The position numbers and the translations under genes were made by a program. This document shows, piece after piece, positions 1 through 25,680 of a stretch of DNA of 33,117 bases. The notes beneath the pieces were generated by a model that did not search any database, was not told the origin of the DNA, and was given only the letters and a program-made list of their open reading frames with translations. Location of the stretch: IMG/VR virus record IMGVR_UViG_2545824709_000011, positions 1-33,117 of that record. One strand, given 5' to 3'. This DNA is from a virus. Lineage: Duplodnaviria > Heunggongvirae > Uroviricota > Caudoviricetes. Every line of letters begins with the position of its first letter. The first letter of the stretch is position 1.

Positions 1-1362
1 ATGTTTAAACCGGAACTCCTTTCCCCGGCGGGAACGCTGAAAAATATGCGTTACGCTTTCGCTTATGGCGCAGATGCTGTTTATGCGGGCCAGCCGCGTT
101 ATTCCCTGCGTGTGCGCAACAACGAATTCAACCACGAAAATCTTCAGCTCGGCATCAATGAAGCCCACGCGCTGGGGAAAAAGTTTTATGTCGTGGTCAA
201 CATTGCACCGCACAACGCCAAGCTGAAAACCTTTATCCGTGACCTGAAACCGGTGGTGGAAATGGGGCCGGATGCGCTGATTATGTCCGATCCAGGGCTG
301 ATTATGCTGGTGCGTGAGCACTTCCCTGAAATGCCGATCCACCTTTCGGTGCAGGCTAACGCCGTGAACTGGGCGACGGTGAAATTCTGGCAGCAAATGG
401 GCCTGACCCGCGTGATCCTCTCTCGCGAGCTGTCGCTGGAAGAGATTGAAGAGATCCGCAATCAGGTGCCGGATATGGAGATCGAGATCTTCGTTCACGG
501 CGCGCTGTGCATGGCCTACTCCGGTCGCTGCCTGCTCTCTGGCTATATCAACAAGCGCGACCCGAACCAGGGCACCTGCACCAACGCCTGCCGCTGGGAG
601 TACAACGTCCAGGAAGGGAAAGAAGATGATGTTGGCAACATCGTACACAAGTACGAGCCGATTCCGGTGCAAAATGTTGAGCCGACGCTGGGTATCGGCG
701 CACCAACCGACAAAGTGTTTATGATCGAAGAGGCCCAGCGTCCGGGCGAGTATATGACCGCGTTTGAAGATGAGCACGGCACTTACATCATGAACTCGAA
801 AGATCTGCGCGCCATCGCCCATGTAGAACGCCTGACCAAAATGGGCGTGCATTCGCTGAAAATCGAAGGTCGTACCAAATCTTTCTACTATTGTGCACGC
901 ACCGCACAGGTTTACCGCAAAGCTATCGATGACGCCGCTGCGGGAAAACCGTTCGATACCAGCCTGCTGGAAACTCTGGAAGGTCTGGCGCATCGTGGCT
1001 ATACCGAAGGTTTCCTGCGTCGTCATACTCACGACGATTATCAGAACTACGAATACGGTTATTCAGTTTCTGACCGCCAGCAGTTTGTTGGTGAGTTTAC
1101 CGGTGAGCGCAAGGGGGACCTCGCGGCGGTAACGGTGAAAAATAAATTCTCCGTTGGCGACAGCCTTGAGCTGATGACGCCGCAAGGCAACATTAATTTT
1201 ACCCTTGAGCACATGGAAAACGCCAAAGGCGAAGCTATGCCGATAGCACCAGGCGATGGTTATACTGTGTGGCTCCCGGTCCCGCAGGATCTTGAGCTCA
1301 ATTACGCGCTGCTGATGCGTAATTTCTCCGGGGAAACCACGCGTAATCCCCACGGTAAGTGA
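1..1362 (+). CDS. rlhA: Host U32-family peptidase-like protein YegQ/RlhA (23S rRNA 5-hydroxycytidine synthase)
   Basis: 453-aa ORF starting MFKPELLSPAGTLKNMRYAFAYGADAVYAGQPRYSLR, recognised from memory as E. coli YegQ (U32 family); flanks the prophage outside the att core. Confidence 0.85.
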   Translation: MFKPELLSPAGTLKNMRYAFAYGADAVYAGQPRYSLRVRNNEFNHENLQLGINEAHALGKKFYVVVNIAPHNAKLKTFIRDLKPVVEMGPDALIMSDPGLIMLVREHFPEMPIHLSVQANAVNWATVKFWQQMGLTRVILSRELSLEEIEEIRNQVPDMEIEIFVHGALCMAYSGRCLLSGYINKRDPNQGTCTNACRWEYNVQEGKEDDVGNIVHKYEPIPVQNVEPTLGIGAPTDKVFMIEEAQRPGEYMTAFEDEHGTYIMNSKDLRAIAHVERLTKMGVHSLKIEGRTKSFYYCARTAQVYRKAIDDAAAGKPFDTSLLETLEGLAHRGYTEGFLRRHTHDDYQNYEYGYSVSDRQQFVGEFTGERKGDLAAVTVKNKFSVGDSLELMTPQGNINFTLEHMENAKGEAMPIAPGDGYTVWLPVPQDLELNYALLMRNFSGETTRNPHGK

Positions 1363-1506
1363 TTAATTTCGATTATTTTTCCCGGATGGAAAATTCTTAG
1401 AAACCGATCACATACAGCTGCATTTATTAAGGTTATCATCCGTTTCGCTGAAAAACATAACCCATAAAATGCTAGCTGTACCAGGAACCACCTCCTTAGC
1501 CTGTGT

Positions 1507-1534
1507 AATCTCCCTTACACGGGCTTATTTTTTA
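1507..1534. repeat. attR core (ogr-proximal copy of the 28-bp att core repeat)
   Basis: Exact 28-bp match to 32615-32642; its reverse complement matches the P2 att core as I recall it (AAAAAATAAGCCCGTGTAAGGGAGATT). Confidence 0.85.
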
Positions 1535-8237: not shown

Positions 8238-8334
8238 CCGTTTAACTCCGTGGTTAATGGGTGAGTGGTATTTTCAGTTGTGCAGGGCATGAGATGCTAT
8301 TTGTCCTGGCTGGTCAGGGGATGAAACAACAGAT

Positions 8335-8369
8335 AAAAAAGGCGGGCAATCAGCCCGCCTGTATTTATT
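8335..8369 (-). terminator. Rho-independent terminator between tfa (G position) and FI
   Basis: AAAAAA, stem GGCGGGC with loop AATCA and GCCCGCC, then TGTATTTATT; on the minus strand the hairpin is followed by TTTTTT. Confidence 0.75.
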
Positions 8370-8567
8370 GCGGTATTTCCGACCATTCAGGATTTGCAGG
8401 ATCCACACGACCAGAAAGACAGCTACTGATTAATCAGGCCAATAAACACATGAACACTAAGCAATAGCCCGGCAGGTCTGAGGTACTGGCGCAATATAAT
8501 TTGTGGCTGGATTACCTGTACGCACCGGAGCGGTCCGATACTTCCGGTACGTCAGATATTGAATGGT

Positions 8568-12524: not shown

Positions 12525-12872
12525 TCAACTCACAGGGATGGTTAACGAAAGTGGCTGGCCGGTGTCGTTGTGCTGGCCGGTTAACGTAACTGTCATTCGC
12601 CCGTCAAAACTGCGCTCAGTGGTGACGGATGACAGGGTGACGCGGGGTTCCCATTTCAGCACCGCCATGTAACAGGCGACCTTAATCTGCAACTCAAGCG
12701 CCGGGGTCTGCGGCTGGTCAATCATTGACGCCAGCACGGAGCCGTAATCACGACGCATCACCCGTGAGCCGACCGGTGTGCGCAGGATATCGCCGATACT
12801 CTGGCTGATATGCTCAAGGTCAGTGACAGTCAGGCCATCACTGCGATTCATTCCGAGATAACGCGCTGTCAT
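12525..12872 (-). CDS. W: Baseplate protein W (gp25-like)
   Basis: 115-aa ORF; synteny. Confidence 0.85.
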   Translation of the reverse strand: MTARYLGMNRSDGLTVTDLEHISQSIGDILRTPVGSRVMRRDYGSVLASMIDQPQTPALELQIKVACYMAVLKWEPRVTLSSVTTERSFDGRMTVTLTGQHNDTGQPLSLTIPVS

Positions 12873-13504
12873 AGAGGGCTCCCGGTTGTGCCGCCGCTGT
12901 CGCCGGGGTGTTTATGGGTATGCAGTACCTTACCGTTTGATGAGAGTTCACCGCCGGTGTGTTCAATGTTGCCGCGCATCGTCCCGCCCTTCTGCACTTC
13001 CAGCGTGCCGGTAATCAGCCTGTTGGTGCAGACCACCTCCGGTGTGTCCAGGGTGACGCGGGTTGATGCTTTCACCATGACCACCGGCACCGTGGCAGTA
13101 ACAGAATCAGAGGCCGTCACGCTGGCCGTTTTAATTCCGCTTACCGTAAGTGCACTGGTTTCGGGTTCATACTCAATCACCGCCCCGTCAGGGAAACGGA
13201 TATGCAGGGCATCCGCCGACGCAGACGGCGCGGGGTTATCGCCGGAATAAATCCCCGGCAGAACGAACGCCGTGTCGAGTTCACCGCCCACGGCCAGAAT
13301 CAGCACCTGTTCCCCCACGGAAGGTGCCCACCATGTGCGCGAACGCCCGGCGCGATGGGTCAGCCACTGAAGCCAGTCGGTGCACATGCCGCCGGTCTGC
13401 ACACGGCAGCGACCGGCGTTAAGGTCGGTTTCGACGACAATGCCGGTGCGTATCATGTTGCGCAGTGCGCGCGCGAGTTCCTGAATATTTGATAATGTGC
13501 TCAT
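12869..13504 (-). CDS. V: Baseplate spike/assembly protein V
   Basis: 211-aa product starting MSTLSNIQELARALRNMIRTG; ATG at 13504 chosen over the 234-aa ORF-track start. Confidence 0.85.
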   Translation of the reverse strand: MSTLSNIQELARALRNMIRTGIVVETDLNAGRCRVQTGGMCTDWLQWLTHRAGRSRTWWAPSVGEQVLILAVGGELDTAFVLPGIYSGDNPAPSASADALHIRFPDGAVIEYEPETSALTVSGIKTASVTASDSVTATVPVVMVKASTRVTLDTPEVVCTNRLITGTLEVQKGGTMRGNIEHTGGELSSNGKVLHTHKHPGDSGGTTGSPL

Positions 13505-13550
13505 ACGGCAATAATGAGAGATATATACTCGATAAACCATTACAACCCGT

Positions 13551-13568
13551 TGTATCATTTTTGGCACA
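13551..13568 (-). promoter_or_regulatory. Candidate Ogr-dependent late promoter element (TGT-N12-ACA) for the V operon
   Basis: Perfect dyad TGTATCATTTTTGGCACA 47-64 bp upstream of the V start; matches the P2/P4 late-promoter activator-site consensus as I recall it. Confidence 0.5.
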
Positions 13569-13587
13569 ATCAAGAAGGAACTGAAGT

Positions 13588-13788
13588 ATGGATAAATATC
13601 AAATCTGGGAAAATCAAAAAGACACCATCGTCCACCAAGAGTATTTAAAAATCTCCGACACCAATTTACTTGGACATATGCATATTGCCAATTATGAGGT
13701 GATTCAAAGTGAATTAAGCAAATTCAACTCTCCTAAAATTGTATTCCACTACTCACTTAATAGAAATGAATTAAAAAAGAGCACATAA
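13588..13788 (+). CDS. Hypothetical small protein (66 aa), AT-rich cargo between S and V
   Basis: ORF on the strand opposite to all flanking phage genes; GGAA-type ribosome-binding site about 8 nt upstream; codon usage visibly AT-rich. Confidence 0.45.
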   Translation: MDKYQIWENQKDTIVHQEYLKISDTNLLGHMHIANYEVIQSELSKFNSPKIVFHYSLNRNELKKST

Positions 13789-13949
13789 ATATATCAAGAC
13801 ATTTTCTCAACTATATCTCCTCAGCATTATCATTTAGAGATTCAACGCGAAATCTACATAAAATCAATGTATTAAATATTGATGATATTACCAATAAATC
13901 CAGAGAAATCATCAATGAAGAATTTTTAAAAAACCCAATCATAAAATTA

Positions 13950-14330
13950 ATGGAAGATTTAAGAAACATCCTAACCCATCAAAAAATGATCTCCCCATTA
14001 ATATCATCATTTATGCACCTCCAGAAAAAAATAAACATACACGGATTTGCATTTAAGATTGAAACCATACTGGAGAATGACCGGCTCTCTGGTAAATCAA
14101 AAGAATACCTGAAGTCAATAGAACAAAAAAATTTATTCATCTTGCCGATAATAGAGGAATACCAATACACAATTCTTAAATACCAGCACTGGCTTTTAGC
14201 TTGTATCCACAATGCTCATCAAAACACATATCCAGAATATTGGGAAGCAAGAAAAAACATAATGGACGTCTGGGGTGGAGATATCCAACTAATACCTGAA
14301 GAGAGTACCCTCACTTATTTGACCAGATAA
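13950..14330 (+). CDS. Hypothetical protein (126 aa), AT-rich cargo between S and V
   Basis: Second plus-strand ORF in the same AT-rich island, followed by a hairpin terminator; no recognisable motif; no obvious Shine-Dalgarno sequence. Confidence 0.45.
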   Translation: MEDLRNILTHQKMISPLISSFMHLQKKINIHGFAFKIETILENDRLSGKSKEYLKSIEQKNLFILPIIEEYQYTILKYQHWLLACIHNAHQNTYPEYWEARKNIMDVWGGDIQLIPEESTLTYLTR

Positions 14331-14363
14331 CAATCTAATTAGCTCATAAACATAAGACACCTT

Positions 14364-14395
14364 GGCCACGATATTTTATCGTGGCCTTATATGAT
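14364..14395 (+). terminator. Putative intrinsic terminator of the plus-strand cargo unit
   Basis: Stem GGCCACGAT(A) / (T)ATCGTGGCC with short loop, followed by TTATAT. Confidence 0.5.
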
Positions 14396-14543
14396 AAAGC
14401 GACTACCTTCGATGAGTCCTTATAACTCTCATCCACTGCACATTTTCAAGTTACAATTAAAGTTCATTTAGTTGAAATATAAAAAGGATGCCGCAAGAGG
14501 ATAATGGCGATATTTCATCAATAAGGCGCAAGAAATGGCACAA

Positions 14544-14996
14544 CTAACGGTCGAGGTGAGCCAGAATAATCTCTTCAATCATCTGCACATCCTCACCGGT
14601 AAAGCCGAGCAGAGGACGCGCCGGATAATCAATTTTCTTACCGTCTTTCCGGTTTTCTTCCGACAGACCGAACTGATGCACACTGGCGATTTTCGGCGAC
14701 TTCCCGCCGTAAAATTCCATTGATGCCTGCTCCGGGCTGGCGCGGATATGCAAAAAACGACTGGTAATAAGTTTCGCAAACATTTTTCGCTTAACACGGC
14801 CAGTCTTTTTTCTGGCGCTCTGCTGCTGGCGTGGCGCGTAGGGTGTGCCGTCCGGGGCTTTCTGAGCCATCACCCGACGCTGCTGACTCTGCCGCAGGCG
14901 TTTCGCCAGTTCGGCACTCAGTCGCCGACGCCCTGACGGTGACAGCGATTCAATCAGTCCGGTCAGCCGGTCTTCAAAACGCTTAAACTCATTCAT
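14544..14996 (-). CDS. S: Tail completion protein S
   Basis: 150-aa ORF MNEFKRFEDRLTGLIESLSPSGRRRL; synteny R-S. Confidence 0.9.
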   Translation of the reverse strand: MNEFKRFEDRLTGLIESLSPSGRRRLSAELAKRLRQSQQRRVMAQKAPDGTPYAPRQQQSARKKTGRVKRKMFAKLITSRFLHIRASPEQASMEFYGGKSPKIASVHQFGLSEENRKDGKKIDYPARPLLGFTGEDVQMIEEIILAHLDR

Positions 14997-23744: not shown

Positions 23745-24362
23745 TCAAGCAGATAGGCAAAACGTTTCTGTTTGCCCCAAGTGTTCAAACACAGTAATCG
23801 ATGTTACTTTTCCGGCACTTATTTTGTTAAGGAACTTCAATATTTGTTGAGGCTCCTCCATGACTGCTGTTTTCTTGATTATAAATCCCTCAAGATTTTT
23901 CAAGCTGTATCGCTGACTTGAGTTCTCAAGAGCAGCAATCATTGCCGAACTGCGCATATCTCTATGTCCACTAGCTCTACAAACGACAGCATAATTTAAA
24001 TTAAGCTCTACAAAATTTTGCCTTGTCAACTCTGGAAGGTGTTTACATACAAAATGAAATAAAGTCGTAACACCTTCATGTATTTTCAACCTTATATCAT
24101 CCTTTTGTGAACGTCCTTCTTTAAATTCAATGAAGTACAATTTATCTTCATATAAAAATAAAGCATCCGGTGATTTTTCTTTAAACTCACGCTTATAAAC
24201 AGGCGAGCAATTTAACACCGTATCATAGTTAAAGCCCTTCGAATCACAAATAATAAAATTCCGAGCCCCTGCATCATTGTAGCTTAATCCGGTTACATCA
24301 ACCATTGAATCAGGGTATACTTCACACAGTTTTCTAAAAACAAGTTCCTCATTAGAAATCAT
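23745..24362 (-). CDS. Hypothetical 205-aa partner protein of the ATPase (candidate defence effector)
   Basis: ORF overlaps the upstream ATPase gene by 11 nt; AGGAG ribosome-binding site 8 nt upstream; AT-rich; contains a D...E-x-K-like stretch (LFLYEDKLYFIEFKEG) but no motif I can assign with confidence. Confidence 0.6.
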   Translation of the reverse strand: MISNEELVFRKLCEVYPDSMVDVTGLSYNDAGARNFIICDSKGFNYDTVLNCSPVYKREFKEKSPDALFLYEDKLYFIEFKEGRSQKDDIRLKIHEGVTTLFHFVCKHLPELTRQNFVELNLNYAVVCRASGHRDMRSSAMIAALENSSQRYSLKNLEGFIIKKTAVMEEPQQILKFLNKISAGKVTSITVFEHLGQTETFCLSA

Positions 24363-25680
24363 CCAAATACTCCTGATTCAATTCTTTTAATGGTGATGCC
24401 AAAAGATTAATTGCATATGCAACATTATCAGTAATATCAACAAAAGATGTAAACTCTTCCCCAGGGAATCGCTCGCTTATATAGAACCGATTTTCAATCC
24501 CAATTTTATCGCTATAATGTTTAAGAGCATCAATAATATACGGGCTATGTGTTGTAATTATTATATCAACCCCCATAGACACTAACTCACAAATAATCTC
24601 AGCATAGAAAACCTGCCATTTTGGATGTAAGTTCACCTCTGGCTCATCAATAATCAGTAACGAGTTATCTACTGCTGCCCCGCACTTAACAAGCATATCA
24701 AGAATACCTAAAGACTTTATTCCTGACGCAATATTACCCGATGTGACTTTATAGCCTTGCTTCTCTAGAAAAAAATCATTCTTTTCAATATCATAAACCA
24801 CTTCACCACAGAAAGTAGCATTGATTTTGTTAGATATACGCAGTGACTCTTTTAAAAATGAGCCATCATCAAAAATATCCGAATGCACAAATAAATTATA
24901 AACTGAATCGCTTAATTTTATTGATAGATCTTTCACATGCAATGGAACAGTTAGACGTCCTGATTCACCATTACTATCAAATAAAGTTTTAGCAAAACGA
25001 ACCAAATTATGAAATTGCATAATACTTGGAGAGTCAACATAGGTTGCGTCGACATATCCTAAACCATCAGTATAATCAAATTGTGATATACCATCTTTAG
25101 TCCATTTAATATCAATTAACTGACTAACACCATCAACAACTTCCAGAGATGCTTTAACTGGATTTTGATTACCCTTCTGAATAATTTCGCCTCTAAATTC
25201 AGAGTAAAAGGCCTTACGCAGAGCACGGTTGATAGCAGATAGCTCATCATCTGGCTCAAGCATTATATCTCTGATTTTTCTTATATCAGAGAGTACAGAA
25301 TCAGCCATCAATTCTGGAAGAAGCCCTTCCTCAATCAAATTATATAGATAACTCTCTCTCTCAGCCAAAGTTTTAGAGATATCTATTTTTAGAGAGGCAT
25401 AAAACTTTCTTGGATTGAATAACTCTCTAATTTCCGGCGTAGCAGCAATATTAATCCTCCTACGCAGATTAAAATATATTTTCTCTACGATAGATGTAAT
25501 TCTATCCTCTTTGTCTTCTTCTAAATCCTCTTGATAACGAGATATCGCCTTTACCATTGAAAACAATATTTTCCCTACGGTACTCTTCCCCGTATCATTT
25601 TCACCAGTTATGACAGTTAAACCACCAACTGAAACATCAGCTTCTGCAATAGTTCCAAAATTATTAATTTTTATACGCAT
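24352..25680 (-). CDS. ABC/OLD-family (AAA_15/AAA_21-like) ATPase, 442 aa (candidate defence ATPase)
   Basis: Walker A GENDTGKST near the N-terminus; long helical insert; C-terminal Walker B/D-loop LLIIDEPEVNLHP and H-loop IIITTHSP; AT-rich cargo between Q and cos. Confidence 0.7.
   Translation of the reverse strand: MRIKINNFGTIAEADVSVGGLTVITGENDTGKSTVGKILFSMVKAISRYQEDLEEDKEDRITSIVEKIYFNLRRRINIAATPEIRELFNPRKFYASLKIDISKTLAERESYLYNLIEEGLLPELMADSVLSDIRKIRDIMLEPDDELSAINRALRKAFYSEFRGEIIQKGNQNPVKASLEVVDGVSQLIDIKWTKDGISQFDYTDGLGYVDATYVDSPSIMQFHNLVRFAKTLFDSNGESGRLTVPLHVKDLSIKLSDSVYNLFVHSDIFDDGSFLKESLRISNKINATFCGEVVYDIEKNDFFLEKQGYKVTSGNIASGIKSLGILDMLVKCGAAVDNSLLIIDEPEVNLHPKWQVFYAEIICELVSMGVDIIITTHSPYIIDALKHYSDKIGIENRFYISERFPGEEFTSFVDITDNVAYAINLLASPLKELNQEYLDDF

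Follow-up and report, generated by a model that had tools for sequence, protein, structure and literature searches.

A frameshifted AT-rich cargo gene in the S-V (orf30) slot of a P2-like prophage and its candidate HEPN-like product

In the virus record IMGVR_UViG_2545824709_000011 (Caudoviricetes), a stretch of 33,117 nucleotides that was analysed over its full length and is referred to here as the window, about 1 kb of AT-rich DNA lies between the tail genes S and V of a P2-like prophage and carries two small open reading frames (ORFs) on the plus strand. Our results indicate that these two ORFs are almost certainly a single frameshifted gene in the slot known from P2 as orf30, and that the 1-nt deletion responsible lies in a run of seven A residues. 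The block as a whole (13505-14483) is best explained as a cargo module, rich in AT and acquired horizontally, that occupies the S-V (orf30) slot of a P2-like prophage which is intact in other respects. Intact alleles of the gene encode a 247-aa protein that appears HEPN-like in its conserved motif and modelled topology. Taking the evidence together, we lean towards the explanation that the module carries a solo HEPN-like abortive-infection (Abi) gene, which is frameshifted in the window.

One gene split by a single-nucleotide deletion

The locus had been described in an earlier note, made by a model from the letters of the window alone (the original prediction), as a unit of two small plus-strand ORFs, with one gene split by a frameshift mentioned as a closing alternative. 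The 66-aa and 126-aa ORFs are present where they had been placed, and the features of the gene that they belong to are as follows.

13588-14330, plus strand: cargo gene for the HEPN-like protein; coding sequence (CDS) of 247 codons, 744 nt in intact alleles and 743 nt in the window
13588-13788, plus strand: ORF1 (66 aa), 5' fragment of the cargo gene
13773-13779, plus strand: frameshift site; A6 (13773-13778) then G in the window, A7 then G in intact alleles
13928-13933, plus strand: second A6 run, with an insertion of one A (+1) in another E. coli assembly
13950-14330, plus strand: ORF2 (126 aa), 3' fragment of the cargo gene

Relatives of the locus bear out the closing alternative, and the headline of two genes does not stand. 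When 5,426 complete E. coli genomes were searched with megablast, the 1-kb block was matched in 17 of them, at 99.7% identity in one, at 95-97% in ten and at ~82% in six. All 17 cover the region, and RefSeq annotates a single hypothetical CDS of 744 nt at the cargo position in each of the three that were inspected. In the alignment, the close E. coli relatives (95-99.7% identity) read TTAAAAAAAG / AATTAAAAAAAGAG (A7) at the frameshift site and the ~82% allele reads ATTTAAAAAAGA (T plus A6, in frame), while the window reads AATTAAAAAAGAG (A6). Restoring one A in the window yields a 247-aa protein that is collinear with its relatives and is matched by phrog_12680 along its whole length (2e-157). 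ORF2 (frame 0) is shifted by -1 with respect to ORF1 (frame 1), and its frame is open from ~13773, so that it overlaps the end of ORF1.

The ratio of non-synonymous to synonymous substitution rates (dN/dS) between intact alleles was 0.16-0.19. By segment, it was 0.16 for codons 1-66 and 0.15 for codons 122-247, and it was 0.20 for codons 67-121, the part that separates the two ORFs. The low values in all three segments show that the whole length of the cargo gene is coding sequence under purifying selection, and the lack of coding conservation that the original prediction had named as the outcome that would speak against it was not seen.

Two independent small genes, such as a toxin-antitoxin pair, would account for the fact that both ORFs exist, are called separately in several assemblies and have PHROGs families of their own, phrog_26242 (66 aa) and phrog_23007 (126 aa), which are of unknown function and match the two fragments exactly. 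This reading leaves the single CDS of the inspected relatives and the purifying selection on the gap between the ORFs without a place. In addition, ORF2 lacks a ribosome-binding site and starts at what is M122 within the intact protein, neither ORF covers the conserved residues R71, N75 and R88, and the split arrangement is limited to one clonal allele. We consider it very improbable and effectively refuted; the two PHROGs families are annotation artefacts of the frameshifted allele. A homopolymer sequencing or assembly error in a gene that is really intact is equally improbable. The length of A runs is often misread, and A7 is present in the complete genome closest to the window (99.7%). However, in all seven loci that were fetched, which came from NCBI assemblies, Logan assemblies of SRA data and an ENA metagenome and hence from separate projects and platforms, the A6 allele was found with the same two linked substitutions and with zero mismatches to the window allele. 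The exact 66-aa product was found on 13 contigs and the exact 126-aa product on 7 contigs, under several NCBI accessions, and 24 contigs in all carry the 66-aa product. Furthermore, the structural phage genes of the window are all intact ORFs of the expected sizes. The identical A6 allele in seven independent loci thus represents one clonal circulating allele, not a read error.

The window allele differs from the closest intact allele by two non-synonymous changes, A15V and T196I, and by no synonymous one; all nine of the closest family members share A15. The A6 allele with these two substitutions looks like early decay. Because translation stops after codon 66 and ORF2 lacks both a ribosome-binding site and helices 1-2 of the protein (with N35, R71, N75 and R88), the window locus is therefore a recent pseudogene, which is non-functional or at most weakly expressed via slippage. 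An independent frameshift allele was seen in E. coli GCA_030004935.1 (locus L025, 901-1650), in another allele background and with a truncated product of 156 aa (P0003). That homopolymer runs of so small a gene were hit twice, and separately, may be due to fragility of its poly-A tracts or to selection against the intact product.

A different way to understand the A6 allele is that it is attenuated and not dead, with -1 ribosomal or transcriptional slippage on the A run restoring the wild-type protein, and the deletion serving as a 'savior indel' of a potentially toxic gene. Through the deletion, the ORF1 frame now reads TTA AAA AAG, i.e. A_AAA_AAG in the correct phase with ORF2 in the -1 frame, and a -1 slip at this site reproduces the wild-type ...NELKK-EHINIS..., with the junction peptide ...NELKKEHINISR.... 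In E. coli, A_AAA_AAG gives rise to -1 shifts more readily than any other heptamer, since both of its codons are read by one and the same tRNA-Lys (PMC5009743), and single-nucleotide deletions in an expression vector were rescued at C_AAA_AAA with 25-60% efficiency (PMC1851650). The A6 allele is also unchanged across many samples, and the second, independent homopolymer frameshift in the same gene hints at selection against its full expression. In its heptamer, its phase and the position of the downstream ORF in the -1 frame, the site resembles those of the dnaX type. It differs from them in that it arose by a recent deletion in one allele, is not conserved and lacks the upstream Shine-Dalgarno-like element and the downstream stem-loop that act as stimulators: no such element is visible upstream of the heptamer, and no stimulatory structure was found downstream of it (minimum free energy -3.6 kcal/mol, z = +0.6). 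All other alleles are single-frame (A7 or T plus A6), so that frameshifting is not a designed feature, and the two substitutions described above, of which A15V hits a residue invariant among close relatives, look like decay. In view of the absent downstream structure and the single-frame relatives, leaky expression is a minor possibility and would not be programmed, and we regard an attenuated allele as unlikely.

The cargo module and its slot

The original prediction had placed the ORFs in an AT-rich block of about 1 kb between S and V, on the strand opposite to the flanking genes, and had called it a moron locus at the position of the AT-rich, non-essential orf30 of P2. These points agree with the base composition, with the Pfam assignments of the flanking genes and with the RefSeq annotation of P2. 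The window is a complete P2-like prophage, in which the order and sizes of the ORFs fit D, U, T, E, FII, FI, G, H, I, J, W, V, S, R, the lysis genes, L-Q, A and int. Its GC content, determined in 300-nt windows, falls to 0.27-0.37 across 13450-14500, as compared to 0.55-0.64 (~58%) on both sides; for the cargo it is 32%, versus 54-60% in the flanks. The slot is bounded by the following features.

12869-13504, minus strand: gpV baseplate spike gene, first of the late V operon (Pfam Phage_base_V 1.3e-20, Phage_spike 5.3e-28); left boundary of the slot
14484-14543, no strand assigned: diverged copy of the ~66-bp V-S spacer of cargo-free P2-like phages, as aligned with the empty site of L-413C
14544-14996, minus strand: gpS tail-completion gene, last of the late O operon (Pfam Phage_tail_S 4.5e-44); right boundary of the slot

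The gpV gene shares ~97.5% nucleotide identity with P2-like phages. In phage L-413C the slot is empty and consists of a 66-bp spacer with a GC hairpin. The window retains a diverged copy of this spacer, with the hairpin degraded, at the right edge of the inserted module, which accordingly extends over ~13505-14483. A repeat search of the region yielded no flanking direct or inverted repeats that would mark a transposon or att-type insertion, and no RNA family was matched there in Rfam.

According to the RefSeq annotation of P2, the non-essential Orf30 (786 nt) lies between S and V on the strand opposite to the late genes, the O-operon terminator is located after S, the PV activator-binding site lies 42-69 nt upstream of V, and transcription of V starts at the A of its ATG. 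The cargo gene of the window occupies the same slot, between the end of the O operon (S) and the PV activator site with the leaderless start of V, and has the same orientation opposite to the late genes and an AT-rich composition. Its start codon, like that of the Orf30-type gene of P2_AC1, stands at an 84-nt offset from V. The proteins differ: Orf30 of P2 and P2_AC1 is a 261-aa protein with hydrophobic, membrane-like segments and is unrelated in sequence to the cargo protein of the window.

Comparison of the S-V interval across P2-like prophages, which had been suggested with the original prediction, thus shows an empty 66-bp site, other cargo (as in P2 and P2_AC1) or the window gene. A query spanning the V+S junction detected P2-like V/S sequences in 1572 of the 5426 complete E. 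coli genomes (~29%), and in 1017 of these 1572 the two halves were joined in one place. All 39 sampled matches with joined V/S span 866 bp, which corresponds to the empty site. Roughly one third of the S-V sites in E. coli are occupied. The window cargo gene accounts for 17 of the 5426 genomes.

Genes that P2 acquired horizontally have been described at three loci, namely the orf30, TO and Z regions (PMC3091744). Work on defence hotspots has centred on old/tin and Z/fun (PMC9122126; 10.1101/2024.10.15.618418), and a 2026 survey mentions defence systems 'within the tail genes' (PMC13586616); the orf30 (S-V) slot is not discussed as a defence hotspot in these three papers.

Relatives keep to the slot

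Homologues of the cargo gene were found in the same slot of other P2-like phages. One of 57% identity occupies it in the same orientation in a divergent P2-like phage, one of 34% identity does so on a Cronobacter-like contig, and a further homologue lies in the S-V slot of a P2-like prophage of Brenneria goodwinii. In every case the homologue is AT-rich (28-35% GC, versus 54-63% in the flanks). The slot homologues have diverged further than the genes W, V, S and R; E. coli 504838 is an example, with 99% amino acid identity in the flanks and 77% in the cargo. In this strain (NZ_CP025856.1, L003 865-1500), the cargo gene is intact and the V gene next to it is classed in RefSeq as a pseudogene, with a stop codon inside it, so that the prophage is probably defective in spite of its intact cargo.

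The cargo gene is the only gene between V and S in the E. coli, Cronobacter-like, Brenneria and Logan P2-like loci, and no conserved partner gene of the family was found among the loci sampled. Outside phages, distant members adjoin a type I restriction-modification (R-M) operon (on metagenomic contigs), an ApeA-type HEPN protein, or CBASS and Bil genes, and in two further non-phage contexts they lie beside integrases or recombinases. A 246-aa gene stands between the distant member and the type I R-M operon (L007 1948-2688, L008 1336-2076) and has no Pfam match; it is unrelated to the family (hhalign probability 1.3%).

In a collection of 50,697 phage records that includes P2, neither a megablast match to the insert nor a tblastn match to the protein (E<=1) was obtained. 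Phage R18C has been reported to carry a hypothetical ORF of 741 bp, ORF16, between V and S, with only seven hits in E. coli prophages (PMC6823313). Its length equals that of the 246-aa, 57%-identical homologue (L010/L011); however, the tblastn search of the phage collection with the cargo protein gave no match. A literature search for the RefSeq accessions of the cargo protein found no paper.

A conserved R-N-x3-H motif in a helical protein

To define the family, we used an exhaustive HMMER search of 1.84 billion representative proteins with a threshold of E<1e-3. This search yielded 121 relatives, most of them 230-250 aa long and matching over nearly their full length. A word-indexed protein search had found only 3 clusters, and it was the exhaustive search alone that opened the family. 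Conservation was counted in an alignment of 79 sequences. N75, R126 and H131 are invariant, N35, R71, R88, N127, Y192 and W202 are more than 90% conserved, and the invariance of the polar R, N and H holds across relatives of ~20% identity. The core motif is [FL]-[VI]-x-D-L-R-N-[YF]-x-x-H, which in the window corresponds to the following feature.

13962-13979, plus strand: R126-N127-I-L-T-H131 (RNILTH), an R-N-x3-H motif and candidate HEPN catalytic motif; R126 and H131 invariant, N127 in 72 of 79 sequences

The original prediction had noticed this R-x4-H motif and had taken it as a weak HEPN-like hint. The hint is stronger than it had seemed, since R126 and H131 are invariant and N127 is retained also in distant relatives.

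An AlphaFold2 model built with the 79-sequence alignment reached a mean predicted local distance difference test (pLDDT) score of 95.7 and a predicted template modelling (pTM) score of 0.91; a model built with a 2-sequence alignment was unusable (pLDDT 45). The model contains long helices at residues 14-44, 59-90, 117-131 and 185-214, a short helix at 99-113, a beta-hairpin at 138-157 and a C-terminal helix. Judged by the secondary structure of the model only, the motif closes helix 117-131 at H131 and is followed by a loop and the beta-hairpin, and helix 99-113 lies between helices 59-90 and 117-131. HEPN domains have been defined as four-helix up-down bundles with frequent inserts between helices 2 and 3, and with an R-x4-6-H motif that spans the junction between helix 3 and the loop after it and has a polar residue (N/D/H) after the R (PMC3710099). 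The cargo family has an R-x4-6-H motif with a polar N after the R, at the end of the candidate helix 3. With R126-N127-x3-H131 at a helix end, a loop after it and helix 99-113 as the insert, the model fits this definition as far as its secondary structure goes. We describe the cargo protein as HEPN-like by motif and modelled topology, short of proven membership. The HepT/HEPN toxins of HEPN-MNT toxin-antitoxin modules (PDB 7ae2, 8xdj, 5yep) and HEPN proteins of the HI0074/YutE type can be placed among the closest known systems.

Library searches with the 66-aa and 126-aa products singly gave no match in Pfam or PADLOC, and the fused protein gave no credible family in either. An NCBIfam match of the fused protein to prephenate dehydrogenase scored 16 bits, where the cutoff is 293, and was dismissed as noise. 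The longer family members (300-712 aa) have no Pfam domains in their extra regions, and these fusions therefore give no clue. The ApeA-type neighbour was dropped as a seed for an HEPN profile comparison; it had a weak HEPN match and no PADLOC match.

Control elements around the cargo gene

The region upstream of the cargo gene and the region past its stop codon contain the following elements.

13529-13558, plus strand: candidate sigma-70-like cargo promoter, TCGATA-18-TATCAT, with 9/12 consensus matches; divergent from PV and overlapping it
13551-13568, no strand assigned: TGT-N12-ACA dyad, located 47-64 nt ahead of the start codon of V and 20 nt from that of the cargo gene
13575-13579, plus strand: Shine-Dalgarno sequence AAGGA, 8 nt upstream of the cargo ATG
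14364-14386, no strand assigned: perfect 10-bp hairpin with a 3-nt loop, GGCCACGATA-TTT-TATCGTGGCC, 34 nt past the cargo stop codon

The TGT-N12-ACA dyad is one of only 6 exact sites in the 33-kb window. From its position, it is likely to be the binding site for Ogr or another activator at the late promoter PV, and together with the PV annotation of P2 this means that the left end of the cargo block probably holds the PV control site. If the RefSeq annotation of P2 is followed, the transcript of the V operon would begin at the A of the V ATG and hence be leaderless; V is also without a preceding Shine-Dalgarno sequence here (window 13504-13568). Since the 5' region of the cargo gene and the PV activator dyad lie within one stretch of 83 bp, late activation and transcription of the cargo gene might hinder each other.

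The Shine-Dalgarno sequence agrees with the ribosome-binding site that had been noted ahead of the 66-aa ORF, and the AGAAGGAAC element also precedes the 57%-identical homologue (L010). The hairpin past the stop codon is stable (-16.8 kcal/mol, z = -4.1 versus shuffles), and its stem contains one compensatory change, from A-U to G-C, in the 82%-identical allele. It is probably a terminator between the convergent cargo and late O-operon transcripts.

Proposed role of the intact protein

In the mechanism that we propose, the cargo gene would be expressed in the lysogen and transcribed opposite to the late operons, with its own ribosome-binding site, a promoter region overlapping the PV control region and the downstream hairpin. 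The intact protein, 247 aa long and mostly helical, would be a metal-independent RNase of the HEPN type; the invariant R-N-x3-H, its helix-end position and the overall topology agree with this. By analogy with solo HEPN Abi proteins such as HepS, it would most likely be idle in the lysogen; infection by a competing phage might then lead to cleavage of RNA (tRNA, rRNA or mRNA) and, through it, to an aborted infection. In the window, the 1-nt deletion ends translation after codon 66, and at most a little full-length protein could be made via -1 slippage. HepS of the Salmonella prophage Gifsy-1 is a solo HEPN protein that is inactive until triggered by a phage structural protein, whereupon it cuts tRNA anticodon loops (PMC13043305). 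As a solo prophage HEPN protein that forms a complete Abi system (PMC13043305), it is the closest characterised analogue in kind, and the cargo gene shares with it that it is a single prophage-borne gene with no cognate partner or antitoxin.

Several observations weigh against this interpretation. In the family, the acidic position of helix 2 takes the form E68-x2-R71 (E in 55/79, R in 72/79), which differs in spacing from the E-x3-[KR] expected of HEPN domains, and the E. coli cargo protein itself has N68 there and not the consensus E68. None of the 79 family members matches any Pfam HEPN family even at E<=5, no PADLOC model was matched by the cargo protein or by the 79 members, and profile searches of PDB sequences at E<=10 gave only spurious short-chain reductases. 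A Foldseek comparison with PDB and BFVD returned nothing significant, and unrelated and designed bundles scored the same. Defence neighbours were seen in only 3 of the 6 non-phage contexts sampled, two of the others having an integrase or recombinase and one being uninformative. With respect to expression, promoter-like sites in the region are not above shuffle expectation. The hairpin is without a canonical U-tract (tail TTATAT) and was not called by the terminator scan because of its poor T-tract. Of the hairpin terminator ascribed to the ORFs by the original prediction, the hairpin is borne out and a role as terminator is probable.

Alternatively, the family may have nothing to do with RNA cleavage or defence, and its members may be helical regulators or anti-defence, lysogenic-conversion or superinfection-exclusion factors in which R-N-x3-H is structural or binds a ligand. 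The missing profile and fold matches to any characterised HEPN family would be expected in this case, HEPN-like domains fused to nucleotidyltransferases are known to be non-catalytic binding domains (PMC3710099), and the cargo slots of P2 also harbour non-defence genes (PMC9122126). On the other hand, strict invariance of polar R, N and H at ~20% identity is typical of an active site, and the motif has the specific form seen in HEPN proteins, with a polar N after the R, a spacing of 4 and a helix-end position. The R-M, CBASS and ApeA neighbourhoods of distant members and the fast evolution of the cargo protein relative to its flanks also speak for a defence function. We thus consider a role outside RNA cleavage and defence possible, though rather doubtful. 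For the family as a HEPN-type RNase with a defence role, where we infer membership, RNase activity and defence role alike, we judge the case to be evenly balanced.

Significance of the locus

The slot, the prophage moron and the frameshifted accessory gene are already known as such. The protein family is uncharacterised and was unrecognised by the annotation resources used, and what is modestly new is that it is faithful to one slot across genera. The old/tin and Z/fun hotspots of P2-like prophages have already yielded several new defence systems, and the orf30 slot now gains a concrete candidate. If the intact allele restricts phages, it would represent a new solo-HEPN Abi family and would flag the slot for systematic mining. 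For annotation, the two 'hypothetical proteins' in many assemblies are fragments of one frameshifted gene. More speculatively, the S-V slot of P2-like phages could be the home of an unrecognised family of solo HEPN-type abortive-infection nucleases across genera of the Enterobacterales (E. coli, Cronobacter-like, Brenneria; homologues of 34-57% identity), with poly-A tracts as breakable switches and the A6 allele as a low-dose version that acts via A_AAA_AAG slippage; in this full form, the idea is a long shot.

Other features of the prophage

The Z/fun slot between FI and G (window 8238-8567) spans only ~330 bp, and no ORF in it exceeds 68 aa; in this prophage, the hotspot is therefore apparently empty. 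The old/tin (TO) hotspot, between the portal gene Q and the replication gene A, holds a two-gene cassette (window 23745-25680, minus strand). One of its genes encodes a 442-aa AAA_15/AAA_21 ATPase, for which the best PADLOC matches were HEC-02A (1.8e-33) and PD-T4-4_A (1.7e-30); it overlaps the gene for a 205-aa partner that has no Pfam or PADLOC match. The cassette is likely to be a second defence system of the same prophage.

Host DNA is present at window 1-1530, with a gene for a U32-family peptidase (1-1362; Pfam Peptidase_U32 5e-89) followed by the small RNA CyaR (1445-1530; Rfam 100.7 bits). This peptidase U32/CyaR locus is the site of the cryptic P2 remnant (ogrK) in E. coli K-12, which places the prophage in a classical attachment region of P2.

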